64,000 bases of DNA, taken from assembly GCA_963816185.1 (NCBI GenBank), contig CAWFJJ010000006.1:1326-65325 (forward strand), written 5' to 3'. The stretch is from Thermoanaerobaculia bacterium. Its GTDB lineage: Bacteria; Acidobacteriota; Thermoanaerobaculia; UBA5066. Made by a program: the position numbers and the translations under genes. Positions 6,099 through 21,149 of this stretch are shown here, in pieces (positions within the stretch are counted from its first letter, which is position 1; each line of letters begins with the position of its first letter). Under the pieces are notes generated by a model that worked only from the letters and a program-made list of their open reading frames with translations, made no database searches and was not told where the DNA came from.

Positions 6099-7100
6099 GT
6101 GCAGGCTCTCTTTCGGCAGGAAGTATTCCACGCGGGCAGCCGGGTGTTCCGGTGGGAGGACGTCGTCCTGGCGGCGGAGCTGTGGGGCGACTGGAAGCTC
6201 ATCGAAGAGAGGGCGCTTCAGAATCTCGCCGTCCTCGCCTCCGTGGACTCCGGAACCGAATCCGCGGTGCCGGAAGATGAGATCGACAAGGCGGCGGACG
6301 ACTTCCGGTACGAGCGGGATCTCATCACGGCCGAGGAGCTCGAGCGTTGGCTCTCACGCTGGCGCCTCGACGCCGAGACCTGGCTCGGCTGGATTCACGC
6401 CACCCTGCTCCGCGACCGTCTGCCGGGCATCGTCTTTTCAGGCCGGCCGGAAGCAGAGGTTCGTCAGGTCGAGCTGGCCGTCCTCGCCGAGGCCGTCTGC
6501 TCCGGGGAACTGGAGCGTCTCGGTCGGCAGCTCGCCGCCCGCGCCGCGATCGCAGAGCGGGAGAGAGAACGAGAGAAGGTCGCCGACGACGAGGATCGAA
6601 ACTCGGCCGGGTCGCTCGCCGAGCGTCGGGAAGTCCTCGCCCGGCTGGAGCTTTCGTACGAGCGGTTCCGTGAGGAGGTGCTCACTCCGGACGCCCTGGC
6701 TGCGCGGGTCAAGGCGCGCCTTACCGATTGGACCCGAATCAGCTGCAGCGTCCTGAGGCTTTCGGCCGAAGACGCCGCGCGCGAGGCGGCGATGGCGGTG
6801 CGCCAGGAGGGAGTCGACCTCGGAACGCTGGCGGAGGAGATCGGCGAGGCCACGGAAGACGGCGTGGAGTTTCTCGAGGAGGCGGAGCCGGAGGTCCGTG
6901 ACATCCTTCTCTCGGCGAGGCCGGGAGAGCTCGTCGGGCCGGTGAACGTCGGCGACGAGTTCGTGCTCGTCTCTGTCCGCGCGAAGACCCCGCCGGCGCC
7001 CGACGATCCCGAGGTGCTCGAGAGAGCCGAGTCGAGCCTCCTGGAAGGGCTCGTCGCACGCGAGGTCGACAACAGGATCACGTGGACATGGAAGCCGTGA
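6099..7100 (+). CDS. hypothetical accessory protein of the exporter operon (parvulin/SurA-like C-terminal tail?)
   Basis: Downstream part of ORF 5634..7100. The upstream part is antisense to the NRDE gene and is discarded. GTG 6099 has GAGAGG upstream, but the start is uncertain. The C-terminus ARPGELVGPVNVGDEFVLVSVRAK resembles the end of PpiC-type PPIase domains. The 3' end overlaps the exporter start by ~19 nt. Confidence 0.45.
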   Translation: MQALFRQEVFHAGSRVFRWEDVVLAAELWGDWKLIEERALQNLAVLASVDSGTESAVPEDEIDKAADDFRYERDLITAEELERWLSRWRLDAETWLGWIHATLLRDRLPGIVFSGRPEAEVRQVELAVLAEAVCSGELERLGRQLAARAAIAEREREREKVADDEDRNSAGSLAERREVLARLELSYERFREEVLTPDALAARVKARLTDWTRISCSVLRLSAEDAAREAAMAVRQEGVDLGTLAEEIGEATEDGVEFLEEAEPEVRDILLSARPGELVGPVNVGDEFVLVSVRAKTPPAPDDPEVLERAESSLLEGLVAREVDNRITWTWKP

Positions 7101-10100
7101 CGAGCAAGGCGAGCTCGGCCGCCGCATCGGAGATCGAGGCGGCCCGGATCTTCCTCGACGACCTGCCGCTCCTGAAGTTCCTCTCGCCCGCGTCGCGCGC
7201 CGCCGTGACCGCGAAGTTCGTTCCCGTCGCCTTTCCCTTCGGCGCCGTCATTCTCCGCGAGGGCGACCCCGCCGACGCCTTCTTCGTCGTCGTCGCCGGG
7301 AAAGCGCGGGCGGTGAAGACGGGGGAACAGGGCGAGGAGGTTTCGCTTGGCGTACTTCGGCCCGGAGACAGCTTCGGCGAGATGGGTCTTCTGGATCCTT
7401 CAGCAAAGCGGCAGGCCACCGTACGCGCCTCGAGCGCGGCGACGGTCCTCCGGCTCGACCGGAACGCCTTCGACGCGCTTCTTTCCGGTGATCCGGAGAT
7501 CCGGACCTGCCTGGAGCTCCACGTCAGGTACCGGAGCCTCCAGAACCTCTTCCGTCTCTACACTCCTTTTTCCACCCTTCCGCCGTCCGTCCTCGCCGGG
7601 CTCCTCCACCGGTTCGAGACGATCTCCGTCGCCGCCGGTGAGGCCGTCTTTCGACAGGGGGATGGCGAGGGGCCTCTCTTCGTCGTCGAGGAAGGGCGGC
7701 TTCGCGTCTTCACCGAAGACGATGGGCACCGGCGAAACATCGCTTATCTGCGAAAAGGCGACGTCTTCGGAGAGATCTCGGCCTTCACGGGGGAACCGAG
7801 AAAGGCCACGGTCGAGGCTGTCACGCCCTGCCGGCTCCTGAGCCTTCACCCGAGCGCCTTCCGGGCGGTCACGGACGCTCACCCGGAATTTCGCGCGGCC
7901 ATCGGACGACGTATCGCCCAGTACGACTATCGAAAAGAGGCCAGGGTGCCGCTCGACTTCGCCGACGAGCTCCTGCCCGCGGAGGCGCAGGTGGAGGAGG
8001 TGGGACCCGACCAGATCGACGAGGACGCCGATCGTCCGCCGGACGAATCTTCAGCGGAGGGATCCGCCGCTCCCTTCGCGACGGAAGACGGTCGGTTCGT
8101 CAAGGGGCCTCGGCGGATCCGCCGCTTTCGCTTCGTCCGGCAGATCGACGAAATGGACTGCGGCGCGGCCTCCCTCGCGATGGTCTGCCGCCACTTCGGC
8201 CGCGCGGTGAGCCTCGCGCGGATCCGGCAGCTCCTCTTCACGTCGACTGACGGCACCAGCCTCCGGGCGGTCTGCCGCGGTGCGGAGGAGCTGGGGCTCG
8301 CCGCGCGCTCCGTCAAGGCCTCGGCGAGGCACCTGGACCAGATGCCGCTCCCCGCGATCCTGCACTGGGGCGGCAACCACTGGGTCGTCCTTTACGACGT
8401 GAGCCCGACGGAGGCTCGCGTGGCCGACCCGGGGGTCGGGCTCAGGCGCCTTCCCCGCGCGGAGGTCGAGAAGGAGTGGACCGGCTACGCCGCCCTCTTC
8501 GACTACACGGAGGCGTTCGAGAAGGCTCCGGTGGGGCGCTCCAGCTTCGCCTGGCTCACCCGGTTCTTCCGGCCGCACGCGGGCGTCCTCGCGAAGGCGG
8601 CCGGCCTCGCCCTGATCGTCAGCGTCCTGCAGATGGTCCTCCCGGTCTTCAGCCAGGTCATCGTCGACCGGGTTCTCGTCGAGCGCGACGAGGGGCTGCT
8701 CCGGATCCTCCTTTTCGGGATGGGAGGCGTCCTCGTCTTCTCGACTCTCGCGATGGTCCTGCAGCGATATCTCCTGAGCTTCGCCGCGGTCCGGATCGAC
8801 GCCTCGACGCTCGACTTCGTCACGCGGCGCCTCCTGTCGCTTCCGATGTCCTACTTCTCGACGCGGAAGACAGGCGACATCCAGCGCCGCCTCATGGGCC
8901 TCCGGCAGGTGCGAGAGCTCCTCGTCCAGTACGGGGTCTCCTCGCTGACCGCCCTCTCGCAGCTCTCCGCGGTCCTGATCCTGATGTTCGTCTACAGCCC
9001 CCTCCTCGCGGGCGTCTTTCTCGCGACCGTCCCCCTCTACGCCCTTCTCATGCGGTACTCGAGGCGCCGGCTGCGTCCCGTCTTCGACACGCTCGAGGAG
9101 GCGTTCGGAAAGTATTCCGCCCAGCAGATCGACACCATCAAGGGGATCGAGACCGTCAAGTCGCTCGGGGCCGAAGGCTCCCTCCGTCAGCTGATGCTGG
9201 AGAGGTTCCTCGGCCTCGCCCGAAAGCAGTTCCGCGCCGACTTCACGGTCATGACCTACGAAGGCGCCGTCCAGGCCGTGAGCTTCCTCTCGACCGCCCT
9301 CTTCCTCTGGGCGGGGGCCGTCCAGGTGATGCGCGGGTCGCTCACCATCGGCGGGCTCGTCGCGTTCAACACCCTCGTCGCCCTCGCGAACGCCCCGATC
9401 GGGATCCTGCTCGCGACCTGGGACCACCTCCAGTACGGAACGGTTCTCCTCGACCGCCTGAACGACGTCTTCGAGCAGAAGCCCGAGCAGGGCGACGACC
9501 GGTCCCAGCTTCTCCCGGTCCGGACGCTCGCGGGAAAGGTGTCGCTCCGAAACGTCGGCTTCCGATTCGGCGGGCCCGAGTCGCCGTTGATCCTCGACGG
9601 CCTGACGTTCGACGTGGACCCGGGAAAGATGGTGGCGATCGTCGGCCGGAGCGGCTCCGGCAAGACGACCCTCGCCAAGCTCCTCTCCGGCCTCATGGAG
9701 CCGACCGAAGGATCGATTCTTTTCGACGGAGCGGACCTCAAGACGCTGAATTACCGGGACCTCAGGCGCCGCGTCGGCTTCGTCCTCCAGGAGAACTACC
9801 TCTTCGACGAGACGATCGCCCGGAACATCGCCTTCGGCGACGGCGAGCCCGACGTGGACCGGGTCCTTTGGGCCGCCCGGGTCGCGAGCGCCCACGAGTT
9901 CGTCGAGAGGTTTCCGCTCGGCTACGACACCCGGGTCGGCGAGTCGGGCCTCGCCCTCTCCGGCGGGCAGAAGCAGCGCGTCGCCATCGCGCGGGCCGTC
10001 TACAACCGTCCCCCGGTCCTGATCTTCGACGAGGCGACCAGCTCTCTCGACACCGAATCGGAGCGGGCGGTCAAGGAGAACCTCGACCGCCTTCTGGAGG

Positions 10101-10264
10101 GCCGGACGTCGTTCGTGATCGCCCACAGGCTCAGCACCATCCGCGACGCGGACGTCATCCTCGTCCTGGAGAAGGGACGTCTCGTCGAGCACGGGACTCA
10201 CGACGAGCTGATGGACCGCCAGGGGCTCTACTACTACCTGTCGAGCCAGCAGCTCGGGATCTAG
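7082..10264 (+). CDS. peptidase C39 domain-containing ABC exporter with two N-terminal cyclic-nucleotide-binding-like domains
   Basis: 1060-aa ORF. Two CAP/cNMP-type segments (..GDSFGEMGLL.. and ..GDVFGEISAF..). C39 catalytic motifs QIDEMDCGAASLAMV (Cys) and GGNHWVVLYDV (His). ABC membrane domain, Walker A GRSGSGKTT, signature LSGGQKQR, Walker B VLIFDEATS. Confidence 0.9.
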   Translation: MDMEAVTSKASSAAASEIEAARIFLDDLPLLKFLSPASRAAVTAKFVPVAFPFGAVILREGDPADAFFVVVAGKARAVKTGEQGEEVSLGVLRPGDSFGEMGLLDPSAKRQATVRASSAATVLRLDRNAFDALLSGDPEIRTCLELHVRYRSLQNLFRLYTPFSTLPPSVLAGLLHRFETISVAAGEAVFRQGDGEGPLFVVEEGRLRVFTEDDGHRRNIAYLRKGDVFGEISAFTGEPRKATVEAVTPCRLLSLHPSAFRAVTDAHPEFRAAIGRRIAQYDYRKEARVPLDFADELLPAEAQVEEVGPDQIDEDADRPPDESSAEGSAAPFATEDGRFVKGPRRIRRFRFVRQIDEMDCGAASLAMVCRHFGRAVSLARIRQLLFTSTDGTSLRAVCRGAEELGLAARSVKASARHLDQMPLPAILHWGGNHWVVLYDVSPTEARVADPGVGLRRLPRAEVEKEWTGYAALFDYTEAFEKAPVGRSSFAWLTRFFRPHAGVLAKAAGLALIVSVLQMVLPVFSQVIVDRVLVERDEGLLRILLFGMGGVLVFSTLAMVLQRYLLSFAAVRIDASTLDFVTRRLLSLPMSYFSTRKTGDIQRRLMGLRQVRELLVQYGVSSLTALSQLSAVLILMFVYSPLLAGVFLATVPLYALLMRYSRRRLRPVFDTLEEAFGKYSAQQIDTIKGIETVKSLGAEGSLRQLMLERFLGLARKQFRADFTVMTYEGAVQAVSFLSTALFLWAGAVQVMRGSLTIGGLVAFNTLVALANAPIGILLATWDHLQYGTVLLDRLNDVFEQKPEQGDDRSQLLPVRTLAGKVSLRNVGFRFGGPESPLILDGLTFDVDPGKMVAIVGRSGSGKTTLAKLLSGLMEPTEGSILFDGADLKTLNYRDLRRRVGFVLQENYLFDETIARNIAFGDGEPDVDRVLWAARVASAHEFVERFPLGYDTRVGESGLALSGGQKQRVAIARAVYNRPPVLIFDEATSSLDTESERAVKENLDRLLEGRTSFVIAHRLSTIRDADVILVLEKGRLVEHGTHDELMDRQGLYYYLSSQQLGI

Positions 10265-11466
10265 ATGGACGAGGCGCCGTTCCTCCCGAGCGACCCGCCG
10301 CCCTTCGCGGCCCGGAGCCTCGCATGGCTCCTGATCGCCCTCTTCGCAGTGGCCGCTGTCGTATCGGTGGCGGTCAAGGTTCCCGAAACGGTCGTCGCCC
10401 CGTTCGCCCTTGTGCCCATGCGCGGCACCGATCCGGTTCGCGCTCCGCACGGAGGCACGGTCACGGAGGCTCTTGCCGTCGAGGGGCGCCCCGTGGCCAA
10501 GGGCGCGAGGCTCTTTGCCATCCGGTCGCAGGAGTTCGGGGACAGGGCCTCCGAGCGGAAGGCGCTCGAAGCAGGCCTCGGCGGACTTGCCGAGAGCCTT
10601 TCCAACGCCCGGAAGAGATTCGACAGCGAGGCCGGCGAGAGGCGTGAGGAGGCCCGGAGTCTCGCCGATCGCGCGGCCTATCTCGATCGGATGCTGGCTT
10701 TGAAGAGGGAGCAGCTCGCCTTGACGCTGGAGCAGTCCGAGCGGGCGAAGAAGCTCGCCGACCAGGGGCTCGCGAGCTTCAACGACCGTTCCGACGCCCA
10801 GATCCGGCACAGCCAGACCGTCATGGAGCTCGAGCAGCTCCAGTCCGACCGGAGCGCGACCGGGAGCGCCATCGAGAAGCTTCGCGACACCGAAGCGGCG
10901 AAGGGGACCGAGTTCCACGAGGAGGAGCGGGTCCTCGAGGAGAAGATCGCTCAGGCGAGAATCAGGATCGGCGCGCTCAGCGGGGGGCGCCCTCCGCCGG
11001 CGGAGACGAATCTGGAAACGAGCTGGCCGTCACTTCTCCGTGCGACGGCACCGTTCTCGGCGTCACGGCGCGGCGGGCCGGGGCGGTGGTCCGCGAAGGC
11101 GACGTCCTCGCCGAGGTCGCCTGCTCCGCCGAGACCCTGCAGGCCGAGCTGAGCCTCCCGCAGGGAGGGCTCTCCCGGATCCACCCCGGCCAGAGCGTCC
11201 GCCTCCTCCTCGACGCGTTCCCGTACCAGCGCTACGGCGTCCGCGGGGGAAGGGTCCGGTGGGCCAGCCCCTCCGGGGTCGGGACCCGCGAGGCCGCGAC
11301 CTTCCCCGTCCTCGTCGACCTGGACGAGCAGGCCGTCCCGGCGGACGGCGAGCGCAAGCCGCTCCTGGCGGGAATGCGCGGCACCGCGCGCGTCGTCGTC
11401 GGCCGCCGCACGCTCGTCGAGTACGCCTTCGAGCCTCTCCGGCAGCTTCGGGAGAACCTCCGGTGA
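10265..11466 (+). CDS. HlyD-family membrane-fusion/adaptor protein, reading frame interrupted once
   Basis: The ATG abuts the exporter stop (TAGATG). The N-terminal ~240 codons (TM helix LAWLLIALFAVAAVV, long coiled coil) are in one frame. The C-terminal barrel part (NELAVTSPCDGTVLGVTARRAGAVVREGDVLAEV...GMRGTARVVVGRRTLVEY) is in another. The two join only if the run GGGGGG at 10982-10987 gains or loses one G. Confidence 0.75.
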
Positions 11467-11532: not shown

Positions 11533-12438
11533 ATGCGCCGCTGCCTCGACGTGGCGCGTGCCGCCTGCCGGACCGAGCTTCCGCTCCTCCTCCTCGGCGA
11601 GTCGGGGACCGGAAAGACGCTCCTCGCCCAGGCGATCCACAACTCCTCTCCGAGAGCGTCGGCTCCCTTCGTCTCCTTCAACGCCGCGGCCCTCTCCGAC
11701 ACGCTCCTCGACAGCCAGCTCTTCGGCCACGAGAAAGGGGCGTTCACGGACGCCAAGCAGCCGCTGCGCGGCAAGTTCGAGGTCGCCGACGGCGGGACCC
11801 TCTTCATCGACGAGATCGCCGACATGAGCCCGCTCGCCCAGGCGAAGATCCTCCGGGCGGTCGAATACGGAGAGTTCGAGAGGCTCGGATCCGAGCGGCT
11901 CCGCAAGGCGGACGTCCGCCTGATCTCGGCCACCCGCCACCCGCTGGAGCGGTTTGCGAACACCGAGCAGTTCCGGAGCGATCTCTTCTACAGGCTCGCG
12001 GGGCTCACCGTCACCCTTCCCCCGCTGCGCGAGCGGCCGAACGACCTGCGCGAGCTCGTCGCGGCCTCGATCCATCGCGCCGCTCACGCACAGGGACGGA
12101 CCATCTCCGGTCTCTCCCAGAAGGCCGCCGATGCCCTTTTCTCGTATCACTGGCCCGGGAATCTCCGGGAGCTCGACCTCGTCATCCACGCCGCAGTCGC
12201 GATGACCGAGGGCTCGGTGATCGAGGAATTTGCGATCCTGGTCCGAAACAACGGCGGGCCCGGGACGTCCCCTTCCGCCGCGCGGCCGGTCCCTGCGGCC
12301 GACCTGAGCCTCCGGGCCGTCGAGCGAGACCACATTCACCGGGTCCTCCGGGAGCTCGGGGGGAACAAGACGAGGGCCGCCAGGACCCTCGGCATCTCGC
12401 GCTCCCGCCTCGAGAGGAAGCTCAACGACGCGAAGTGA
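11533..12438 (+). CDS. sigma-54-dependent transcriptional activator (bEBP) lacking an N-terminal sensory domain
   Basis: 301-aa ORF. AAA+ core GESGTGKT, GAFTDA (GAFTGA variant), LFIDEIADM, WPGNLRELD. C-terminal Fis-type HTH NKTRAARTLGISRSRLERKL. Only ~22 in-frame codons separate the HlyD stop from the first ATG, so there is no room for a receiver, GAF or PAS module. Confidence 0.85.
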   Translation: MRRCLDVARAACRTELPLLLLGESGTGKTLLAQAIHNSSPRASAPFVSFNAAALSDTLLDSQLFGHEKGAFTDAKQPLRGKFEVADGGTLFIDEIADMSPLAQAKILRAVEYGEFERLGSERLRKADVRLISATRHPLERFANTEQFRSDLFYRLAGLTVTLPPLRERPNDLRELVAASIHRAAHAQGRTISGLSQKAADALFSYHWPGNLRELDLVIHAAVAMTEGSVIEEFAILVRNNGGPGTSPSAARPVPAADLSLRAVERDHIHRVLRELGGNKTRAARTLGISRSRLERKLNDAK

Positions 12439-12573: not shown

Positions 12574-12589
12574 TGGAACGGTCCTTGCT
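12574..12589 (+). promoter_or_regulatory. sigma-54 (-24/-12) promoter heading the peptide-gene array
   Basis: TGGAAC-GGTCC-TTGCT. GG (12575-76) and GC (12587-88) have the canonical 12-nt register of TGGCAC-N5-TTGC. Located 135 nt downstream of the bEBP stop and 42 nt upstream of the first leader-type RBS and start. Confidence 0.6.
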
Positions 12590-14605: not shown

Positions 14606-14737
14606 GTGAAGAAGACCACGAAGAAAAGCCCCTCGAAGGCATCTCACAAGAAGGCGGTCAAGAACCTCGAGCTCAAAACGGTTAAGAGCGGGACGGTCCG
14701 AGGAGGAGTACCCGCGGTCCAAAAGTCAGGGAGATAG
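14606..14737 (+). CDS. precursor peptide B: MKKTTKKSPSKASHKKAVKNLELKTVKSGTVRGG / VPAVQKSGR
   Basis: GTG start 6 nt after AAAGGAGAAACGAC. 43 codons. TAG stop at 14735. Confidence 0.8.
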   Translation: MKKTTKKSPSKASHKKAVKNLELKTVKSGTVRGGVPAVQKSGR

Positions 14738-14747
14738 GAGGAGCAAC

Positions 14748-14885
14748 ATGAAAAAGATCGCGAAGAAGGGCGCCCCGAAGGCCTCTCACAAGAAATCGGT
14801 CAAGGACCTCGAGATCAAGCCCGCCAAGGGCGGGACGGGCGAGACGGTCCGTGGCGGCAAGATGATCGACAAGATCCACATCTGA
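14748..14885 (+). CDS. precursor peptide C: MKKIAKKGAPKASHKKSVKDLEIKPAKGGTGETVRGG / KMIDKIHI
   Basis: ATG after GGAGGAGCAAC. 45 codons. Leader carries the 3-residue insert GET. Confidence 0.8.
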   Translation: MKKIAKKGAPKASHKKSVKDLEIKPAKGGTGETVRGGKMIDKIHI

Positions 14886-14921: not shown

Positions 14922-15145
14922 ATGATGAAGACAGGCCGCCGAGGACCAAGCCGTCGCCGGGGGTTCGTCCTCCTCAGAGATCTCATCCCTCGAAACGACC
15001 CCAAAGGCGGGTCGGCCGGGAAAACGGTATTCGGTGAACGTCCCACGGTCCTCGAGACAGAAGAAAAGCACCCCCATGAGGATGTTCCGGCCGAACGAAG
15101 GCAGACGCCGGGTCACGGCCGAAACAGGAGGAAAGGAGACACGAT
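14922..15145 (+). repeat. R-element copy 2 (intact 75-codon ORF 14922..15149: MMKTGRRGPSRRRGFVLLRDLIPRNDPKGGSAGKTVFGERPTVLETEEKH...)
   Basis: Same element as 12969, 15772, 16505, 18386 and 18945. The ORF stop overlaps the precursor D start (ATGA). Confidence 0.7.
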
Positions 15146-15286
15146 ATGAAGAAGACCACGAAGAAGACCCCGAAGGCCTCGCACAAGAAGGCGGTCAGGA
15201 ACCTCGACGTCAAGCCCGCGAAGGGTGGAACGGTCCGTGGCGGAATACATGGTGGCTGGGACCAGCTCGCGAACAAGAAAGTTTGA
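15146..15286 (+). CDS. precursor peptide D: MKKTTKKTPKASHKKAVRNLDVKPAKGGTVRGG / IHGGWDQLANKKV
   Basis: ATG after AAAGGAGACACGAT. 46 codons. Confidence 0.8.
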   Translation: MKKTTKKTPKASHKKAVRNLDVKPAKGGTVRGGIHGGWDQLANKKV

Positions 15287-15373: not shown

Positions 15374-15520
15374 ATGAACAACCCCAAGAAGAAGAGCGCC
15401 TCGAAGGCCTCCCACAAGAGGAAGGTGAAGGACCTCGAGATCAAGCCCGCCAAAGGAGGGACCGTCCGTGGAGGCAAGGTCTTTCCCAAGGTGACCACGG
15501 GTTTGCTCGACAAGTACTAG
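15374..15520 (+). CDS. precursor peptide E: MNNPKKKSASKASHKRKVKDLEIKPAKGGTVRGG / KVFPKVTTGLLDKY
   Basis: ATG after GTAAGGAGAAGACGTC. 48 codons. Confidence 0.8.
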   Translation: MNNPKKKSASKASHKRKVKDLEIKPAKGGTVRGGKVFPKVTTGLLDKY

Positions 15521-15596: not shown

Positions 15597-15734
15597 ATGA
15601 AGAAGAACGCGAAGAAGAACCCTCCGAAGGGTTCCCGAAAGAACGCAATCAAGGACCTCGAGATCAAGCCCGCCAAGGGCGGGACGGACGGGACGGTCCG
15701 TGGCGGCAAGTTCGAGACCAAGATCCACATCTGA
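15597..15734 (+). CDS. precursor peptide F: MKKNAKKNPPKGSRKNAIKDLEIKPAKGGTDGTVRGG / KFETKIHI
   Basis: ATG after AGAAGGGAGACACGAC. 45 codons. Leader insert DGT. Confidence 0.8.
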   Translation: MKKNAKKNPPKGSRKNAIKDLEIKPAKGGTDGTVRGGKFETKIHI

Positions 15735-15771: not shown

Positions 15772-15996
15772 ATGATGAAGACAGTCCGCCGAGGACCAAG
15801 CCTTCGCCAGGGATTCGTTCCCCTCAGGGACCTCGTGCCCTGAAACGACCCCAAGGGGGGGTCCGCTGGGAAGACGGTATTCGGCGAACGTCCCCCGGTT
15901 TCCGTGACAGAAATGACACAGCGCTTCCAGGATGTTCCGGCCGCACGAAGGCAGAAGCCGGGTCACGGTCGAAACAGTAAGTAAGGAGAAGACGTC
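15772..15996 (+). repeat. R-element copy 3 (ORF interrupted by TGA at 15841: MMKTVRRGPSLRQGFVPLRDLVP*)
   Basis: Nucleotide-level homologue of the other R copies, but with an in-frame stop inside the otherwise conserved PRNDPKGG block. Confidence 0.65.
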
Positions 15997-16128
15997 ATGA
16001 ACAACCCCAAGAAGAAGAGCGCCTCGAAGGCTTCCCACAAGAAGACGGTCAAGAACCTCGAGGTCACGCCCGTCAAGGGCGGGAAGGTCCGTGGGGGCTT
16101 CCCGACGCCATGGAAAAACAAGGTCTAA
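15997..16128 (+). CDS. precursor peptide G: MNNPKKKSASKASHKKTVKNLEVTPVKGGKVRGG / FPTPWKNKV
   Basis: ATG after GTAAGGAGAAGACGTC. 43 codons. Confidence 0.8.
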   Translation: MNNPKKKSASKASHKKTVKNLEVTPVKGGKVRGGFPTPWKNKV

Positions 16129-16174: not shown

Positions 16175-16306
16175 ATGAAAAAGACCTCGAAGAAGAGCGC
16201 CTCGAAGGCATCTCACAAGAAGGCGGTCAAGGACCTCGAGGTCAAGCACGCCAAGAGCGGGACGGTTCGCGGAGGACTGCCCCCCGGTCCACCAACCTAC
16301 AAATGA
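16175..16306 (+). CDS. precursor peptide H: MKKTSKKSASKASHKKAVKDLEVKHAKSGTVRGG / LPPGPPTYK
   Basis: ATG after GAAAGGAGAAACGAAC. 43 codons (3' part of ORF 16091..16306). Confidence 0.8.
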   Translation: MKKTSKKSASKASHKKAVKDLEVKHAKSGTVRGGLPPGPPTYK

Positions 16307-16327: not shown

Positions 16328-16453
16328 ATGAAGAAGACCACGAAGAAAGACCCTTCGAAGGCCTCTAAGAAGAAGGCGGTCAAAAACCTCGAGGTCAAGC
16401 CCGCGAGGGGTGGAACGGTCCGCGGAGGCTGGGACCCGACCAAAGCGCGATAG
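16328..16453 (+). CDS. precursor peptide I: MKKTTKKDPSKASKKKAVKNLEVKPARGGTVRGG / WDPTKAR
   Basis: 41 codons. No obvious SD. An in-frame ATG at 16316 would add MRTD. Starts 22 nt after precursor H. Confidence 0.7.
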   Translation: MKKTTKKDPSKASKKKAVKNLEVKPARGGTVRGGWDPTKAR

Positions 16454-16504: not shown

Positions 16505-16725
16505 ATGAAGACAGGCCGCGGTAAGACAAAGCCCTCGCCGGGGTTCGTCCCCCTCAGGGACCTCATCCCCCGAAACGATCCCAAGGGCGGGTCGGCCGGG
16601 AAGACGGTATTCGGCGAGCGTCCCCCGGTCCTCGAGGCAGAAGAAAAGCACCCCTTCAAGGATGTTCCGGCCGAACGAAGGCAAAAGCCGGGTCACGACC
16701 GAAACAGGAAGAGAGGAGAGACGAC
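16505..16725 (+). repeat. R-element copy 4 (ORF 16493/16505..16729: MKTGRGKTKPSPGFVPLRDLIPRNDPKGGSAGKTVFGERPPVLEAEEKH...)
   Basis: Belongs with copy 1 to a subclass that differs from copies 2, 5 and 6 by a compensated pair of 1-nt indels near the 5' end. Preceded by two TCGAAACGA boxes (16456, 16470). Confidence 0.7.
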
Positions 16726-16914
16726 ATGAAGAAGAACACGAAGAAGACAGCCTCCAAGGCAAAGGGGCCCAAGGCGACGAAGAATCTCGACGTCAAGCCC
16801 GCCAAGGGCGCGAAGGTCCGTGGTGGAACTGTAAACAAGGGGTGGATCGAAGTTTCATCCTTCAGTTTTAATGCGGAACCCACCGTCAGTGTGACCGCGA
16901 AGAAGCCGTCCTGA
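16726..16914 (+). CDS. precursor peptide J: MKKNTKKTASKAKGPKATKNLDVKPAKGAKVRGG / TVNKGWIEVSSFSFNAEPTVSVTAKKPS
   Basis: 62-aa ORF in the track. RBS GAGAGGAGAGACGAC. Stop overlaps the GT41 start (TGATG). Confidence 0.8.
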   Translation: MKKNTKKTASKAKGPKATKNLDVKPAKGAKVRGGTVNKGWIEVSSFSFNAEPTVSVTAKKPS

Positions 16915-18386
16915 TGAGCACCGGCTGGCCGAAGGGCTGCCGCATGCTCGCGGCGGGCAAGTATGCGAGCGGCCTCGCGGCCTTCGAACCGGCCGTCCGG
17001 GCGAGTCCGGACTCTGCGGCCGCACGATTCCACCTCGCCCGGGCGAGCTTCGCCCTAGGGGAGGTCGAGAGGGCGACCCGGCAGCTTCGGGCGGCACTCC
17101 GGATCCGCACGGATATCCGAGCTCTGCGGTTCCTGGCCACGATCGCCCCGTTCGACCCGCGCCTCGACCACGCGGCGATCCTGAAGGTCCGCCGCGCGCT
17201 GGCCGCTGCGGTTCGCGCTCGAACCGTCGCGCCCGCCAGGGCGATCGTCGTCGGGAGCCCGGCCAGGAAAGTGCTCAAGGTTGGCTACGTCTCGTCTTTC
17301 TTCGACAAGGACAACTGGATGAAGCCGGTGTGGGGGCTGATCGATCACCACGACGCCAAGAGGGTGGAGATCCACCTTTTTGCCGACGTGCCGCGCGTTT
17401 CTGCGGTGCGTCGGCGGGCGCGTGCGAGCGCGGCGCACGTCCACGACATCTCGCGCCTTGACAACGATGTGGCCGCGCGGCTGATCGCCCGGACGGGGCT
17501 CGACGTCCTCGTGGATCTCAATCAGTACAGCCGGGTCGGCCGGATGCCGCTTTTTTCGACCAGGCTGGCGCCGGTCGTCGTCGCGTGGTTCAACATCTTC
17601 GGGACCTCGGGAATGCCGGTTTTCGACGCGCTGATCGGCGATCGATGGCTCGTCCGCGACGTCGAGAAGCCTTGGTACCTCGAAAAGATCGTGAAACTCC
17701 CGTTCTCGTCGCTGACTTTCGCGGTGGACTATCCGGTCCCTGACGTCGGGCCGCCGCCTTTCTTGCGCAACGGCTTCGTCACGTTCGGAAGTCTTTCGTC
17801 GCTGTACAAGCTCAACGACGGCGTCGTCGGCACCTGGGCCGACATTCTGAAGCGGAGCCCGGGAAGCCGTCTTCTCCTGGGCAATGCGGATCTGGGAGAC
17901 CCCGGCAACCGAGCGCACACTCTCGAGCGATTCACCGCGCGCGGGATCGAGCCCGCGCGCGTCACGTTGCTCGGGCCCGACGAGCACTACGAGTTTCTCC
18001 GAAACTACGACGCGATTGACCTCGCTCTCGACACGTTCCCCTACAACGGAGGCACGACGACCACCGAGGCGATCTGGCAAGGAGTCCCGGTCGTCGCGTT
18101 CTTGGGGGACCGGTGGATCTCGCGTACCAGCGCCTCCCTGCTGGAAAACGCCGGTCTTGAGGGCTTCGTCAGCCGGGACGTCCGCGGTTATGTCGAAACG
18201 GCCGTCCGGTGGGGGTCGGGAGCAAAGGCGGAAGAACGGAGAGAGCTCCGCCGCACGATGAGGAAACGCCTGAAAGCCTCACCCGTCACCGACTGCGCGA
18301 GCCTCGCGCGCTGCATCGAGGACGCTTACGTCCAATTGTGGGGCGCGAGGACTCGCTCCGCTCTCCCTCAGCGGATGACAGCGTGA
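16914..18386 (+). CDS. TPR-containing GT41-family glycosyltransferase (OGT/SPINDLY-like)
   Basis: 490-aa ORF. N-terminal TPR-like helices. C-terminal block VTFGSLSSLYKLND...LLLG...IDLALDTFPYNGGTTTTEAIWQGVPVVAF matches the GT41 catalytic-domain signature (DTFPYxGxTTxxxALWxGVPVV). Confidence 0.85.
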   Translation: MSTGWPKGCRMLAAGKYASGLAAFEPAVRASPDSAAARFHLARASFALGEVERATRQLRAALRIRTDIRALRFLATIAPFDPRLDHAAILKVRRALAAAVRARTVAPARAIVVGSPARKVLKVGYVSSFFDKDNWMKPVWGLIDHHDAKRVEIHLFADVPRVSAVRRRARASAAHVHDISRLDNDVAARLIARTGLDVLVDLNQYSRVGRMPLFSTRLAPVVVAWFNIFGTSGMPVFDALIGDRWLVRDVEKPWYLEKIVKLPFSSLTFAVDYPVPDVGPPPFLRNGFVTFGSLSSLYKLNDGVVGTWADILKRSPGSRLLLGNADLGDPGNRAHTLERFTARGIEPARVTLLGPDEHYEFLRNYDAIDLALDTFPYNGGTTTTEAIWQGVPVVAFLGDRWISRTSASLLENAGLEGFVSRDVRGYVETAVRWGSGAKAEERRELRRTMRKRLKASPVTDCASLARCIEDAYVQLWGARTRSALPQRMTA

Positions 18387-18606
18387 TGAAGACAGGCCGT
18401 CGAGGACCAAGCCGTCGCCGCGGGTTCGTCCTCCTCAGAGATCTCGTCCCCCGAAACGATCCCAAGGGCGGATCGGCCGGGAAGACGGTATTCAGCGAGC
18501 GTCCCCCGGTCCTCGAGACAGAAGATAAGCATCACCTTAAAGATGTTCCGGCCGAACGAAGGCAAAAGCCGGGTCACGACCGAAACAGGAAGAAAGGAGA
18601 AACGAC
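18386..18606 (+). repeat. R-element copy 5 (ORF 18386..18610: MKTGRRGPSRRRGFVLLRDLVPRNDPKGGSAGKTVFSERPPVLETEDKHHLKD...)
   Basis: The ATG overlaps the GT41 stop (TGATG). The stop overlaps the precursor K start (GTGA). Confidence 0.7.
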
Positions 18607-18741
18607 GTGAAGAAGATCACGAAGAAAGGTCCCTCGAAGGCCCCCAAGAAGAGGACGACGAAGAATCTCGACGTCAAGCCCGCCAAGGGCGGGACGATCC
18701 GCGGGGGGAGCCTCCCCCGACAGTGGAAGTGGATCGAGTGA
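18607..18741 (+). CDS. precursor peptide K: MKKITKKGPSKAPKKRTTKNLDVKPAKGGTIRGG / SLPRQWKWIE
   Basis: GTG after AAAGGAGAAACGAC. 44 codons. Confidence 0.8.
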   Translation: MKKITKKGPSKAPKKRTTKNLDVKPAKGGTIRGGSLPRQWKWIE

Positions 18742-18776: not shown

Positions 18777-18908
18777 ATGAAAAAGACCACGAAGAAGAAC
18801 CCTCCGAAGGTGTATCGAAAGAAGGCAATCAAGGACCTCGAGATCAAGCCCGCCAAGGGCGGGACGGGCGAGACAGTCCGTGGCGGCAAGGATAAGATCC
18901 ACATCTGA
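18777..18908 (+). CDS. precursor peptide L: MKKTTKKNPPKVYRKKAIKDLEIKPAKGGTGETVRGG / KDKIHI
   Basis: ATG after GAAAGGAGAAACGCC. 43 codons. Leader insert GET as in precursor C. Confidence 0.8.
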   Translation: MKKTTKKNPPKVYRKKAIKDLEIKPAKGGTGETVRGGKDKIHI

Positions 18909-18944: not shown

Positions 18945-19168
18945 ATGATGAAGACAGGCCGCCGAGGACCAAGCCGTCGCCGGGGGTTCGTCCTCCTCAG
19001 AGATCTCGTCCCCCGAAACGATCCCAAGGGCGGGTCGGCCGGGAAGACGGTATTCGGCGAGCGTCCCCCGGTCCTCGAGACAGAAGATAAGCATCACCTT
19101 AGAGATGTTCCGGCCGAACGAAGGCAGAAGCCGGGTCACGACCGAAACAGGAAGAGAGGAGAAACGAC
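18945..19168 (+). repeat. R-element copy 6 (ORF 18945..19172: MMKTGRRGPSRRRGFVLLRDLVPRNDPKGGSAGKTVFGERPPVLETEDKHHLRD...)
   Basis: Near-identical to copies 2 and 5. Most differences from them fall on third codon positions of this frame (manual comparison). Confidence 0.7.
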
Positions 19169-19312
19169 GTGAAGAAGATCACGAAGAAAGGTCCCTCGAA
19201 GGCTTCCAAGAAGAGGACGACGAAGAATCTCGACGTCAAGCCCGCCAAGGGCGCGACGGTTCGTGGCGGAGTGCATGGCGGTTGGGACCAGATCGCGAAC
19301 AAGAAGATTTGA
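19169..19312 (+). CDS. precursor peptide M: MKKITKKGPSKASKKRTTKNLDVKPAKGATVRGG / VHGGWDQIANKKI
   Basis: GTG after AGAGGAGAAACGAC. 47 codons. Confidence 0.8.
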   Translation: MKKITKKGPSKASKKRTTKNLDVKPAKGATVRGGVHGGWDQIANKKI

Positions 19313-19393: not shown

Positions 19394-19537
19394 ATGAAGA
19401 AGAACACGAAGAAGACAGCCTCCAAGGCAAAGGGGCCCAAGGCGACGAAGAACCTAGAGGTCAAACCCGCCAAGGGGGCGTCGGTCCGTGGCGGAGTGCA
19501 TGGTGGCTGGGACCAGGTCGGGAACAAGAAGTATTAG
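19394..19537 (+). CDS. precursor peptide N: MKKNTKKTASKAKGPKATKNLEVKPAKGASVRGG / VHGGWDQVGNKKY
   Basis: ATG after AGAGAGGAGACACGAC. 47 codons. The stop abuts the Cys-rich paralogue 2 ORF. Confidence 0.8.
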   Translation: MKKNTKKTASKAKGPKATKNLEVKPAKGASVRGGVHGGWDQVGNKKY

Positions 19538-20782
19538 TTGCCCTCTGATCAAGTGACCTCTCCGAAGACCCGCGCGGTCCGGCTCCCGTCGATCACCGAT
19601 GCTCCCGCCAGGGGCCTGGCACCGCTTCATGCGCGCTGGCTCGAGGCGGCGCTCGGGGGCAAGATTCCTTCCGAGCCACACGCGGCGTGCGACAACTGCG
19701 CGATGCTGCCGGTGTCCGGAGGCGCGGATGAAGAGCGCGGCGCAGTCTTCTTCAACCCCAGGACGAAGTGCTGCACTTACCTGCCGAGACTTCACAACTT
19801 TCTCGTCGGGGCGATCCTCGCAGACGAAGCGACCGATATGGCCGAAGGGCGTGCCCGCGTCCTGGAGAGGATCGGGAAGAAGGTCGGCGTGACGCCGCTC
19901 TGGGTCGGCGCCGGCGGCGCGTACAGCCTCGTGTACGACCACGGAGACGGGGTCTTCGGCCACAGCGAGGCGATGCGCTGCCCCTACTATCTCGAAGACC
20001 GGATCGACGGCGGCTGCGGGGTGTGGCGTCACCGCAATTCCATCTGCATGACCTGGTTCTGCAAGCATGAGCGCGGGGCCCCGGCGCTGCGGTTCTGGGA
20101 CTCGGCCAAAGAGCTGCTGATGGCCGTCGAGGAGAATCTCGCGATCCATTGCCTCGTCACTCTGGGTTTCGACGACGCGGCGCTCCGGACCAATTTCCCG
20201 TTCAAGGTTCCGAAATCTCAGCGGTCGGAAACCGTGAAGGGGGACGAGCTCGACGGCACGGTGAGCCCGGAACGATACAAGGCTCTCTGGGGGAGCTGGA
20301 CGGGCCGCGAGGAGGAGCTCTACCGCCAATGCGACGCGATCGTCCGAGACATCGAGTGGAAGGACGTCGAGCGCATCGGCGGCGCGAGCGTCGCACTCCT
20401 GTCGCAGCTCGCGCGCGCGGCCTATCAGGCGGTGATCCGTGACGACCTTCCCGAGCGGCTCGAGATCGGCAATCTCAGCGTCATCGGCACGGGGCGCGGG
20501 ACCTTGCGCCTGGCCACGTACAGCGCCTACGACCCCATCGACGCCCCGGCCGCGCTTCTCCCCGTGCTTCCCGCGTTCGACGGCTCCAGGGTGCCCGACG
20601 CCCTTCGCGCGATCGAAAGGGACCATGGGCTCGTCCTGAGCCCCGAGCTCGTCCGAAAGCTCGTCGACTACGGCCTGCTCCGCGCGGTGGACGCCCCCGA
20701 AGACGAGCAAGTCTGGCGAAACTCCATGAAAAGGCGGAAGCCGGGTCATCGCCAAAACAGGATGAAAGGAGAAACGACATGA
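19538..20782 (+). CDS. Cys-rich protein, paralogue 2 (YkgJ/FliB-like motifs)
   Basis: 414-aa ORF. Start is TTG 19538 or GTG 19553. About 47 substitutions over ~378 aligned residues versus paralogue 1 (manual count), and all 9 Cys of paralogue 1 are conserved. It lacks the stop used by paralogue 1 and reads 22 codons further, ending in an ATGA overlap with precursor O. Confidence 0.7.
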   Translation: MPSDQVTSPKTRAVRLPSITDAPARGLAPLHARWLEAALGGKIPSEPHAACDNCAMLPVSGGADEERGAVFFNPRTKCCTYLPRLHNFLVGAILADEATDMAEGRARVLERIGKKVGVTPLWVGAGGAYSLVYDHGDGVFGHSEAMRCPYYLEDRIDGGCGVWRHRNSICMTWFCKHERGAPALRFWDSAKELLMAVEENLAIHCLVTLGFDDAALRTNFPFKVPKSQRSETVKGDELDGTVSPERYKALWGSWTGREEELYRQCDAIVRDIEWKDVERIGGASVALLSQLARAAYQAVIRDDLPERLEIGNLSVIGTGRGTLRLATYSAYDPIDAPAALLPVLPAFDGSRVPDALRAIERDHGLVLSPELVRKLVDYGLLRAVDAPEDEQVWRNSMKRRKPGHRQNRMKGETT

Positions 20783-20910
20783 AGAAGATCACGAAGAAAG
20801 GTTCCTCAAAGGCTTCCAAGAAGAAGGCGGTCAGGAACCTCGACGTCAAGCCTGCGAAGGGCGGGACGGTCCGTGGAGGGGCAACCAGACTCGACAAGTG
20901 GCCCGGGTAG
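20779..20910 (+). CDS. precursor peptide O: MKKITKKGSSKASKKKAVRNLDVKPAKGGTVRGG / ATRLDKWPG
   Basis: ATG after GAAAGGAGAAACGAC. 43 codons. Confidence 0.8.
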   Translation: MKKITKKGSSKASKKKAVRNLDVKPAKGGTVRGGATRLDKWPG

Positions 20911-20934
20911 ACGCTTGGCGGCCGGCAGCACGCG

Positions 20935-21149
20935 AGGCCGGCTACGCGGTACTTCCGCGCGAAGAGCGTGAGCCGCGCGGAGAGGTGGAGAAGCTGAGCG
21001 AGCTGCGTCGCACGATGAGGATACGGTTGCGGGCTTCGCCGGTCACCGATTGCCCAAGGCTCGCGCGCCGCATGGACGATGTCTACCTCCGGCTATCGGG
21101 CGCGAGCCCTCGTCGGAAACGACCCCGGGCCGCGCTCCCGCGTAATTGA
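20935..21149 (+). pseudogene. C-terminal remnant of a second GT41 glycosyltransferase gene
   Basis: ..ELRRTMRIRLRASPVTDCPRLARRMDDVYLRL.. aligns to the last ~45 residues of the intact GT41 protein (ELRRTMRKRLKASPVTDCASLARCIEDAYVQLW). Nothing corresponding to the TPR or catalytic parts precedes it. Confidence 0.7.

Follow-up and report, generated by a model that had tools for sequence, protein, structure and literature searches.

A probable sigma-54-controlled export system for peptides with double-glycine leaders, some of which resemble parts of Hcp, the tube protein of the T6SS

The window analysed here is a stretch of 64,000 nucleotides from a Thermoanaerobaculia soil bacterium. In this window, positions 6099-21149 of the plus strand form a co-oriented block of 15 kb. 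Every component named in the original prediction was found in its place when coordinates and domains were rechecked. The block is a sigma-54-controlled export system for peptides with double-glycine (GG) leaders. Besides the small peptide genes, it contains the following features:

6099..7100 (start approximate), +, PpiC/SurA-like accessory protein (Rotamase_2, weak TIGR04500)
7082..10264, +, ABC exporter with a peptidase domain and, at its N-terminus, two cNMP-binding domains (Pfam, motifs)
10265..11466, +, HlyD-type periplasmic adaptor, split in two frames (tblastn, TIGR01843)
11533..12438, +, sensor-less sigma-54 enhancer-binding protein (bEBP; AAA+ plus HTH_8) (Pfam)
12574..12589, +, -24/-12 sigma-54 promoter-like site TGGAACggtccTTGCT (motif match)
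13400..14542, +, Cys-cluster plus predicted RRE protein, copy 1, 380 aa
16914..18386, +, TPR plus GT41 glycosyltransferase, lineage-specific accessory (Glyco_transf_41, TPR_19)
19538..20782, +, second copy of the Cys-cluster plus predicted RRE protein, without its canonical ATG, start TTG 19538 or GTG 19553
20898..21149, +, C-terminal remnant (~48 aa) of another GT41 gene (identity to GT41, DNA repeat D7)

The Pfam domains of the exporter, two cNMP_binding, Peptidase_C39 (1.2e-32), ABC_membrane and ABC_tran, together with the catalytic-type motifs DCG (residue 359) and HWVV (residue 433), bear out the cNMP-C39-ABC architecture proposed earlier. Its best NCBIfam match is TIGR03796, with a score of 527 against a cut-off of 853. 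This architecture is not new. HetC of Nostoc PCC 7120, the only characterised cNMP-PCAT, has the same domain order, acts in heterocyst development and is a proposed exporter of a signalling peptide; its N-terminal cNMP domain is needed for function and binds ppGpp in vitro (PMC10986499). However, HetC has a single cNMP domain, no adjacent adaptor and no known Hcp-like cargo, whereas the window has two cNMP domains and HlyD. The adaptor is present as predicted, but its frame is broken in this assembly: compared with the orthologue of L001, an 86%-identity relative of the window in which the gene is intact (400 aa), a G-run near 10981-10986 is one nucleotide short. Two tblastn segments in frames +1 and +3 are 88-89% identical to that orthologue, and the C-terminal part matches TIGR01843 at 2e-20. 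Only one base of a homopolymer is affected, and the defect may be a sequencing or assembly error.

The accessory protein scores 27.3 bits against Pfam Rotamase_2 (cut-off 27) and weakly, 30 bits, against TIGR04500 (cut-off 180). A homologue above 80 bits adjoins the exporter in 17 of 19 exporter-bearing loci, with a weaker match (E<1e-5) in the remaining two. A comparable protein is MirC, a PpiC/SurA-like partner (TIGR04500) in the biosynthesis of the graspetide rosaritide, which is likewise of a divergent PpiC type and encoded next to a PCAT in a cluster for peptide maturation (PMC13097080). Unlike that cluster, the window has no ATP-grasp ligase.

The regulator contains Sigma54_activat (2.7e-58), an AAA lid and HTH_8 (2e-11), with a GAFTDA loop at residue 69. 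It has no N-terminal sensor domain, and the in-frame stop at 11464 leaves no room for an N-terminal extension, in agreement with the sensor-less bEBP of the original prediction. Of 10 related bEBP-containing loci, 8 have a TGG-N9-TGC site equivalent to TGGAACggtccTTGCT downstream of the bEBP gene, against a chance expectation of about 0.2 per locus, which strengthens the case for sigma-54 control.

Downstream of this site lies the array of precursor genes:

12632..12913, +, two decayed leader-peptide genes (repeat copies without intact frame)
13191..13376, +, precursor 1, core GKAGSGRTTVSDLQISKVVDKSSAVLF, aligns with residues 45-70 of Hcp (Pfam T6SS_HCP, real-Hcp HMM)
14606..14737, +, precursor 2, GTG start, core VPAVQKSGR (leader repeat)
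14748..14885, +, precursor 3, core KMIDKIHI, TGE insert in leader
15146..15286, +, precursor 4, core IHGGWDQLANKKV, possible but non-significant match to the C-terminus of Hcp
15374..15520, +, precursor 5, core KVFPKVTTGLLDKY
15597..15734, +, precursor 6, core KFETKIHI
15997..16128, +, precursor 7, core FPTPWKNKV (relative in another genome, FPTPWRSKP)
16175..16306, +, precursor 8, core LPPGPPTYK
16328..16453, +, precursor 9, core WDPTKAR
16726..16914, +, precursor 10, core TVNKGWIEVSSFSFNAEPTVSVTAKKPS, aligns with residues 22-41 of Hcp (real-Hcp HMM)
18607..18741, +, precursor 11, GTG start, core SLPRQWKWIE
18777..18908, +, precursor 12, core KDKIHI
19169..19312, +, precursor 13, GTG start, core VHGGWDQIANKKI
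19394..19537, +, precursor 14, core VHGGWDQVGNKKY
20779..20910, +, precursor 15, core ATRLDKWPG

The leader-coding repeat (DNA family D4) has 16 copies. The earlier count of 15 intact and two decayed genes holds: one decayed copy (12635-12704) lacks both an in-frame start and the GG, and the second (12774-12913) is frameshifted. In each precursor, a leader of about 33 aa that is rich in Lys and Arg and closes with V/I-R-G-G precedes a core of 6-28 aa. A common leader is thus present as described, but of its two GG motifs only the second (RGG) is invariant across the 15 leaders; family-wide, V(R/K)GG is nearly invariant (64 peptides). The reading as double-glycine peptide export stands. The leaders match no model in Pfam or NCBIfam, the source annotations name no precursor family, and the literature searched yielded nothing relevant on it.

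Interspersed with the precursors are six R repeats (at 12968, 14923, 15773, 16503, 18384 and 18946). They had been taken for non-coding elements, but they encode a conserved small protein of about 74 aa with a GG motif of its own:

12969..13190, +, R gene copy 1, frameshifted after ...FGERPPI
14925..15149, +, R gene copy 2, intact (74 aa), stop codon overlapping the start ATG of the gene that follows
15775..15996, +, R gene copy 3, broken by in-frame TGA
16505..16729, +, R gene copy 4, intact
18386..18610, +, R gene copy 5, intact
18948..19172, +, R gene copy 6, intact

Protein-level homologues of the R-ORF are found in five other bEBP-containing loci, and the peptide is conserved after its GG. 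Part of this conservation may be at the nucleotide level, because the R-ORF overlaps in its 3' half with the 5' leader and Shine-Dalgarno sequence of the following gene, which are conserved as well. The R product accompanies bEBP-containing versions of the system; this conserved peptide is probably either exported or regulatory.

The two decayed leader genes, the two disrupted R copies, the GT41 remnant, the frameshifted HlyD gene and the missing ATG of the second Cys-rich copy could together suggest that the array is decaying and non-functional, made up of remnants of duplicated gene pieces, and that the R-elements are non-coding repeats. Several observations make this highly unlikely. First, purifying selection is seen in frame and not out of frame. 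In an alignment of 14 leaders, from which the gene at 14606 with its GTG start is absent because a string search missed it, pN/pS is 0.44 in frame versus 1.08 and 1.15 in the other frames, and insertions and deletions comprise whole codons; for the R-ORFs, it is 0.42 versus 1.1-1.4. Second, an AGGAGA- or GGGAGA-like Shine-Dalgarno sequence lies about 6-8 nt upstream of 13 of the 14 genes examined, the exception being the gene at 16328. Third, the repeats match no RNA family of Rfam. Finally, the HlyD defect is the single homopolymer base noted above, and the same architecture is found across phyla.

The two Cys-rich paralogues are present as predicted and are 87.6% identical. They belong to a family of about 2,000 cluster representatives from many phyla, for which neither Pfam nor NCBIfam has a model. 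The N-terminal domain is a remote CxxCxxCC-type Cys-cluster domain with no relative among solved structures. In a predicted model, the C-terminal domain matches RiPP recognition elements (RRE) by fold, a RiPP feature missed by the earlier statement that no enzyme family defining known RiPP classes is recognisable; two B12-radical-SAM enzymes in distant relatives of the locus also speak against an absence of RiPP features. A FliB-like lysine methylase, as originally proposed, could not be demonstrated: the window protein has no Pfam match even at E<=10 and no NCBIfam FliB match, and PF03692 is touched weakly by 16 of 45 homologues (best E 0.025). The predicted glycosyltransferase (Glyco_transf_41, 3.6e-35, plus TPR_19) is there, as is its remnant, which is 60% identical over 48 aa to GT41 residues 444-486. 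However, GT41 is confined to the window and its closest relatives (L001 and L004) and is therefore a lineage-specific accessory rather than a defining part.

Gene order is the same in L001, and the array turns over fast between the two. A distant relative (L002, 43% identity) carries HlyD, bEBP, about 10 K/R-leader peptides, the Cys-rich protein and the two B12-radical-SAM enzymes. In 19 of 81 loci, a cNMP-C39-ABC exporter lies within 10 kb of a Cys-rich homologue. The ten largest other ORFs of the window include no outer-membrane channel, immunity gene or receptor, consistent with the earlier observation for the first two.

The cores had been called hypervariable and unrelated. Not all of them are: across the family, many cores correspond to conserved stretches of Hcp, the tube protein of the T6SS. 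Of 133 distinct cores, 58 are significant against an HMM of real Hcp (p<=0.01; about 1.3 expected by chance), and together they tile Hcp residues 2-159. In the window, two of the 15 cores are statistically Hcp-like. That of precursor 1 matches Pfam T6SS_HCP (E=0.0011) and the real-Hcp HMM (15.3 bits, p=0.003), and a cluster mate of this peptide carries the JGI name Hcp. That of precursor 10 matches the HMM (p=0.003) and is collinear with the Hcp-family PDB chains 7fcf and 4w64. The window also has three K..KIHI cores and three GWD..NKK cores, the latter no more than suggestive of Hcp; nine cores of 6-14 aa have no assigned relation. T6SS_HCP is matched by 7 of 64 peptides, one of which (P0148) reaches 29.8 bits against a Pfam cut-off of 23.5, and no other family recurs. 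The concatenated cores of one locus match P. aeruginosa Hcp1 (1y12) at 1.7e-12. A "virtual Hcp" stitched from 9 cores is 50-55% identical to real Hcps of 158-161 aa over 99% of the length (E ~1e-40), and a canonical T6SS cluster houses one of the Hcps matched. Nearly all convincing matches in 83 loci begin directly after the GG, including those behind unrelated acidic leaders. No full-length Hcp gene was seen in these loci. One exception is a mini-Hcp ORF in L015 that carries a signal peptide.

As cores across the family near-copy segments of genuine Hcp (PF05638/TssD), with up to 100% identity, the exported products are best read as Hcp-mimicking peptides that may act or report on T6SS tube assembly in kin or rivals of the producer. 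They may serve in T6SS interference, signalling or killing. Unlike Hcp itself, the cores contain no full-length Hcp fold, and each fragment is a separate gene behind a secretion leader, sent to an ABC exporter and not to the T6SS. To judge from the annotation libraries and literature searched, this arrangement has not been described before. A sigma-54-controlled operon with many precursors, RiPP- or microcin-like export and Hcp-mimicking cargo is probably the best explanation of the locus.

C39-ABC/HlyD pairs are the classical exporters of GG-leader bacteriocins, such as colicin V (CvaAB) and class II microcins. The C39-ABC fusion, the HlyD partner and small precursors with GG-ending leaders are shared with these systems, and many paralogous precursors in a quickly changing array would also suit conventional class II microcin- or bacteriocin-type antimicrobials with a membrane or periplasmic target. 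The Hcp likeness would then reflect the origin of the coding material from an ancestral sigma-54 hcp gene. Indeed, hcp operons often depend on sigma-54 and a bEBP (for example, VasH in Vibrio cholerae), and the predicted promoter type matches that of many of them. Even so, this reading is unlikely. No immunity gene is seen, and cores of 6-14 aa are far below known microcin lengths. The two cNMP domains, sigma-54/bEBP control, at least 15 precursors with cores of only 6-28 aa, the putative RRE-containing partner and the Hcp-copied cores are further differences from the colicin V and class II microcin systems. Moreover, Hcp fragments recur in several phyla behind unrelated leader types and are near-identical to real Hcp (KPQKADGSLDAGIHFKYDLKAQKEG, 25 of 25 residues); this favours selection on Hcp-like sequence over leftover ancestry.

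The products could also act in cell-cell signalling (quorum, kin or danger), with Hcp-derived sequences imitating what T6SS activity or lysed kin leave behind. The HetC precedent, very short cores of importable size, a dedicated regulator and the conservation of the R peptide after its GG, as expected of a ligand with a fixed receptor, are consistent with this possibility. However, neither a receptor nor a histidine kinase nor an RRNPP-type regulator is present in the cluster, the bEBP lacks a sensor domain, and at least 15 different cores are many for a signal. The dedicated protein with its predicted RRE and the tailoring enzymes of these clusters (B12-radical-SAM, GT41) point to modified products more than to plain signal peptides. 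Signalling is thus quite improbable.

For the favoured explanation, an export system of Hcp-mimicking peptides, the following course may be proposed. The sensor-less bEBP, judged by its domains and the conserved site, would activate the -24/-12 promoter. The array would then be transcribed, and about 15 precursors translated from genes with their own Shine-Dalgarno sequences, as their coding constraint suggests. The Cys-cluster protein may bind the leader of each precursor through its predicted RRE fold, while its metal- or Fe-S-type N-terminal domain is a candidate for chaperoning or chemically modifying the core. GT41 possibly adds sugars in this lineage only, and the PpiC/SurA-like protein may be a partner or chaperone. 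By analogy with what is established for these protein families, C39 would cut after the GG, the ABC/HlyD pair would export the core, and the two cNMP domains would tie export to a nucleotide ligand.

Many precursors sharing one conserved leader are also known from the prochlorosins, where ProcM acts with many Nif11-leader precursors, and from NHLP/Nif11 systems with TIGR03796-type exporters. Diverse cores and a single leader-recognising partner are likewise common to both. However, the window exporter stays below the TIGR03796 cut-off, the leader is unrelated, and the partner is an uncharacterised Cys-cluster plus predicted RRE protein instead of a lanthionine synthetase. The cores, unlike those of the prochlorosin and NHLP/Nif11 systems, derive from a structural protein.

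The inventory of cluster parts in the original prediction was borne out by an ORF listing and HMM scans. Features of the + strand block that are cited by position are the following, in window coordinates.

About 6099-7100, + strand: PpiC/SurA-like ORF, from the ORF listing and HMM scans
11533-12438, + strand: gene of the sigma-54 enhancer-binding protein (bEBP)
12574-12589, + strand: -24/-12 site, TGGAACggtccTTGCT
13400-14542 and 19538-20782, + strand: two copies of the Cys-rich protein gene
16668-16706, 18549-18587 and 20714-20754: examples of a stem-loop upstream of precursor genes

C39-ABC/HlyD systems cut their cargo after a double glycine and then export it. The exporter of the cluster is 1060 aa long and, according to the HMM scans, is composed of two cNMP-binding domains, a C39 peptidase, an ABC membrane domain and an ATPase domain, in this order. 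The Peptidase_C39 match (1.2e-32) provides the catalytic Cys and His of the N-terminal C39 domain of peptidase-containing ABC transporters (catalytic-type motifs DCG at residue 359 and HWVV at 433), and the six-helix membrane domain and the nucleotide-binding domain are matched by ABC_membrane (8.3e-43) and ABC_tran (5.5e-36). With two cNMP_binding stretches N-terminal to C39 (3.1e-46), the protein has the architecture of HetC, in which the cNMP domain is required for function and binds ppGpp (PMC10986499). Membership in the NHLP/Nif11 bacteriocin export system was rejected on NCBIfam scores below the cut-offs, both for the exporter (TIGR03796 equivalog, 527 vs 853) and for the adaptor (TIGR03794, 23.5 vs 156), and on leaders that, in Pfam and NCBIfam, match neither NHLP nor Nif11. 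Compared with its intact orthologue in L001, the closest related locus, the HlyD adaptor gene is split, its G-run at 10981-10986 being one base short; this could reflect a long-read homopolymer or assembly error or a genuine inactivation. The Rotamase_2 match of the PpiC-like protein is barely at the Pfam cut-off. Its membership in TIGR04500, for which a literature search yielded graspetide papers only, was rejected at 30.2 bits vs a cut-off of 180, the match covering just the C-terminal half. MirC illustrates that the maturation of a peptide can depend on a divergent PpiC-type protein as an obligatory partner (PMC13097080).

The leader-coding repeat is present in sixteen DNA copies in the window. 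Of the 15 intact precursor genes, 14 were aligned; the one left out, at 14606, starts with GTG and was absent from the search output. An AGGAGA- or GGGAGA-like Shine-Dalgarno sequence lies about 6-8 nt upstream of 13 of the 14, indels are whole codons, and the pN/pS of the leader is 0.44 in frame vs 1.08 and 1.15 out of frame. By these sequence measures, the small ORFs are real genes. A second glycine pair (V/I-R-G-G) is the only one invariant in all 15 window leaders, and it lines up with a V(R/K)GG that is nearly invariant among 64 family members of other genomes; cleavage is therefore predicted after this second pair. That the exporter performs this cleavage and exports the core is likewise a prediction, from the conservation of RGG in the leaders. 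Pfam and NCBIfam scans of the leaders gave no match, known precursor families included, and PADLOC reported nothing specific. Approximately 50-25 nt upstream of most precursor starts, a stem-loop recurs around GGC-NNNN-GCC, with outer stems that differ in sequence and still pair. Folding energies of the conserved 5' regions and of the stem-loop are no better than those of shuffles (z from -0.5 to -2.0). The stem-loop may be an element of mRNA processing or stability.

The C-termini had been described as unrelated to one another. This does not hold for all of them: across the family, many of the cores are pieces of Hcp, the tube protein of the type VI secretion system (T6SS). Against an HMM of real Hcps, 58 of 133 distinct cores are significant, in the sense that at most one of 200 shuffles scores as well; chance alone would give about 1.3 such cores. 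Their matches span Hcp residues 2-159. Some cores are identical to a segment of a real Hcp (for example, KPQKADGSLDAGIHFKYDLKAQKEG) and another, RKAGKEQHEYLIVKMNDILIT, differs from one by a single mismatch. Among the 64 peptides with Lys/Arg-rich leaders, which come from the window and from related loci, 7 match Pfam T6SS_HCP, the only family to recur; the T6SS_HCP cut-off is exceeded by one database relative (29.8 vs 23.5 bits), and 10 of 76 database matches had been named 'Hcp' by the JGI pipeline. Five cores of the related locus L018, joined end to end, retrieve Hcp1 of P. aeruginosa (1y12) at 1.7e-12, in separate aligned blocks at the N-terminus, in the middle and at the C-terminus. Nine cores stitched together match genuine Hcps of 158-161 aa with 50-55% identity over 99% of the query (E about 1e-40), in an Hcp order chosen by us, so that the alignment demonstrates tiling and not genomic collinearity. 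One of the Hcps matched is encoded in a canonical T6SS cluster with TssK/L/M, TagF, TssA/B/C, two Hcp genes, TssE/F/G, ClpV and VgrG.

Nearly all convincing Hcp-like matches in 83 loci start directly after the GG. The possibility that the cores are T6SS Hcp proper (PF05638, a fold of about 160 aa) was rejected, as only segments of 10-32 residues match, each of them straight after GG. Unrelated leaders of the classical acidic type (ending in ...LSDDQLERVSGG) also precede fragments of the Hcp N-terminus; in Myxococcota, Bacillota-like and other genomes, such peptides are encoded just upstream of the Cys-rich gene. A reversed-Hcp control gave no match at E<1, compared to 7 with the real sequence. 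No full-length Hcp gene was seen in the 83 loci, with the exception of a mini-Hcp ORF with a signal peptide in L015. This ORF (1430-2200) lies about 360 bp upstream of the Cys-rich homologue and combines a signal-peptide-like N-terminus with a compact Hcp-like body (DTFLKINLPG...LEILSFSWGP...LTITKKMDAASPKLMAAF...). In genomes labelled Heliomicrobium, the Hcp N-terminal strand is fused to an Hcp-like C-terminus in a single core of 31 aa (PSDYLLTLDGIKGESSG...TYDLKAAKK) behind an acidic GG leader. Another core motif, ...PG..K(Y/W)..(I/L)TLKRG(I/L)T, is present in the database peptides P0147, P0149, P0156, P0160, P0143 and P0169. Cores with this motif presumably resemble tail-tube proteins of contractile injection systems, but their being copies of such proteins is unproven, with no match in PDB and TIGR02241 only at E=0.12. 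The positions of the two core types, in locus coordinates, are as follows.

L023 2095-2367: fused 31-aa Hcp-like core
L037 9710-9922: fused 31-aa Hcp-like core
L040 120-332: fused 31-aa Hcp-like core
L007 18487-18681: core with the ...TLKRG motif
L002 9651-9827: core with the ...TLKRG motif

Among the 15 cores of the window itself, two are significant, those of the genes at 13191-13376 (Hcp 45-70) and 16726-16914 (Hcp 22-41), both at p=0.003. The former, precursor 1, also matches Pfam T6SS_HCP at profile positions 36-67 (E=0.0011). When joined, the two are collinear with residues 20-70 of the Hcp-family chains 7fcf and 4w64. A resemblance to the Hcp C-terminus is seen in three GWD..NKK cores; this assignment was rejected, the cores being not significant against the real-Hcp HMM, the alignment to the C-terminus of 7fcf scoring 1.4 bits, and a longer relative having no Hcp match in PDB. 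The remaining window cores are 6-14 aa long. FPTPWKNKV has the relative FPTPWRSKP in another genome, and SLPRQWKWIE has SLQSTRFEKWIE. Judged from such sequence pairs, several of the short cores are conserved families and not noise.

The six R-elements are repeats of about 230 nt, each with an ORF that reads MKTGRR...FVLLRDLVPRNDPKGGSAGKTVFGERP...KRGETT. Of the copies, four are intact, one carries a frameshift and another an in-frame TGA. Each intact ORF ends in a stop codon that overlaps the ATG of the following precursor gene. For four intact window copies and two from L001, the pN/pS is 0.42 in frame vs 1.38 and 1.13 out of frame. Homologues of the R protein are encoded in five other loci, all of which contain a bEBP gene, with the signature (V)LL[KR]DL[AV]PR..[VI][KR]GG.GK..FGE. 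The alternative that the R-elements are RNA was rejected: an Rfam search of 12.0-21.5 kb returned one chance-level match, folding is no more stable than that of shuffles, and the coding tests favor a protein. The R-elements are coding. In its 3' third, the ORF shares nucleotides with the conserved 5' region and Shine-Dalgarno sequence common to most precursor genes (repeat families D2 and D3), so that conservation there may be partly at the nucleotide level.

The two Cys-rich paralogues of the window are 87.6% identical, and eight cysteines (C51, C54, C78, C79, C148, C160, C170 and C175) are invariant in 45 homologues. Copy 2 lacks the start codon of the MVRLP shared by copy 1 and the homologues and reads AVRLP (19538-19560), so that its start must be TTG 19538 or GTG 19553. 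The original prediction took the protein for a candidate modifier of the FliB-like lysine methylase kind. This membership is unsupported, because the window proteins have no Pfam match at E<=10, NCBIfam gave nothing relevant on 45 family members, the FliB model included, and PF03692 (CxxCxxCC) is only weakly matched, by 16 of 45 homologues with a best E of 0.025. The relation to PF03692 appears to be, at most, a remote one at the level of the domain. For the N-domain, Foldseek against PDB gave nothing significant and a sequence-profile search of PDB found no solved relative. The confident AlphaFold model (pLDDT 85, pTM 0.84) places an RRE-type winged-helix domain (RRE, RiPP recognition element), with a predicted PqqD-like fold, at about residues 305-400. 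RRE domains bind leaders. Taken with the model, the data show a remote Cys-cluster (metal or Fe-S) domain fused to a predicted leader-binding domain, and this is very probably a new peptide-processing family. Precursor genes flank both copies in the window, and in many other loci the homologue directly follows a GG-peptide gene. No class-defining RiPP enzyme family was detected in the window by Pfam and NCBIfam scans. Charge complementarity of the RRE with basic vs acidic leaders was considered and rejected, with no clear difference (-3.2 vs -2.3).

bEBPs activate sigma-54 promoters. The bEBP of the cluster has 301 aa and consists of an AAA+ domain and an HTH only (Sigma54_activat 2.7e-58, HTH_8 2e-11), with the loop GAFTDA, a variant of GAFTGA, in a sensor-less, PspF-like architecture; an in-frame stop 69 nt upstream of the gene excludes an N-terminal or sensor domain. 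A TGG-N9-TGC site follows the bEBP gene within 900 nt in 8 of the 10 loci that contain one, far above the roughly 0.2 per locus expected by chance from the window density of 29 per 128 kb of strand. The GC content of the window, 0.66-0.70 elsewhere, drops to 0.61-0.65 from 12 to 20 kb, and AT skew climbs there to +0.18 to +0.34, which fits Lys-rich genes in series on the + strand.

The first database search with the Cys-rich protein gave more than 270 matches, none with a Pfam domain and all named 'hypothetical' or, once, 'Fe-S-cluster containing'. Among 1.84 billion cluster representatives, a profile search yielded 1,983 at E<=1e-3, of which 1,190 reach E<=1e-30. A genome scan found 80 loci, every one from a metagenome-assembled genome, in Acidobacteriota, Methylomirabilota, Gemmatimonadota, Chloroflexota, Myxococcota, Bacillota, Bacteroidota, Planctomycetota and Pseudomonadota, the closest being from Thermoanaerobaculia (Acidobacteriota). 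L001 (86% identity) has the gene order of the window, including GT41 and two Cys-rich copies; L002 (43% identity) has HlyD, bEBP, about ten peptides with Lys/Arg-rich leaders, two B12-radical-SAM enzymes and the Cys-rich protein. The cNMP-C39-ABC exporter is encoded within 10 kb of the Cys-rich homologue in 19 of 81 independent loci, 17 of which have a PpiC-like gene above 80 bits and the other two weaker matches, and a bEBP is found in ten of the 81. GT41 is confined to the window and L001; among the relatives, only the closest have it. In the window, it combines Glyco_transf_41 (3.6e-35) with an N-terminal TPR_19 (5.3e-9), and the remnant of a second gene is 48 aa long. In L002 (11408-13447 and 14063-16153) and likewise in L013, two B12-binding radical-SAM enzymes are interleaved with precursors of the SFSFG... 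type; these enzymes of distant relatives, absent from the window, are candidate tailoring enzymes. A different class of partner peptide lies directly upstream of the Cys-rich homologue in L016, L021, L022, L036, L041, L047, L050 and L059 (locus coordinates about 9.1-10.0 kb). Its N-terminus is hydrophobic or twin-arginine-like (for example, SRRGLLKGALIALGASIIMQPNGG), and a Lys-rich tail (...KKKKKKKKKKPD) follows, the Lys-rich part standing after the GG and not before it.

We infer that the Cys-rich protein would bind the leaders and modify or escort the cores, that GT41 would tailor cores in the window lineage, that the cNMP domains would gate export and that the products may act through Hcp mimicry. 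As hcp operons are frequently sigma-54- and bEBP-dependent, the module may have originated from an hcp gene and its promoter broken up behind secretion leaders. A tentative and rather unlikely reading is that libraries of short peptides, secreted by bacteria of several phyla and each copying a single strand or the helix of Hcp, are matured by a hitherto unrecognised Cys-cluster/RRE enzyme family and serve as mimics, which would either poison or cap the assembly of Hcp rings and tubes in rivals, as a peptide weapon or shield against T6SS, or signal T6SS activity or danger among kin. The peptides could instead be ordinary bacteriocins or signalling peptides, or the array could be decaying. The evidence on these rivals points different ways, with purifying selection, Hcp segments behind different leaders across phyla, and no immunity gene or receptor; computation settles none of the functional readings. 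If the Hcp-mimic reading is true, the peptides would represent a functionally new class of ribosomal peptide and, as a secreted small-molecule-like antagonist or reporter of T6SS, would be the first. Action on T6SS would open a new level of conflict or communication between the bacteria of soil communities and offer natural peptide leads against a major bacterial weapon. Whatever their role, the arrays show wholesale recruitment of precursor cores from a structural protein, and the Cys-cluster and RRE family is large and unannotated, with about 2,000 cluster representatives from Acidobacteriota, Gemmatimonadota, Methylomirabilota, Myxococcota, Chloroflexota, Bacillota and others.

In Pfam, NCBIfam and PADLOC there is no model for the leaders, the R protein or the Cys-rich protein, source annotations call the peptides 'hypothetical' or 'Hcp', and a full-text literature search of incomplete coverage found no description of the system. 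The familiar export machinery follows, in a variant form, the known logic of GG-peptides and RiPPs; the unfamiliar cargo and maturation protein appear undescribed. None of the ten largest ORFs in the rest of the window is TolC-like or a T6SS component. The genes flanking the cluster differ between the window and L001, placing the orthologous clusters of the two relatives in different genomic contexts. The region 25678-60664 of the window encodes M1, S8 and S9 peptidases, a PAS-GAF-GGDEF-EAL protein, DUF3300 and three Ser/Thr kinases with WD40/PD40 or AAA domains.
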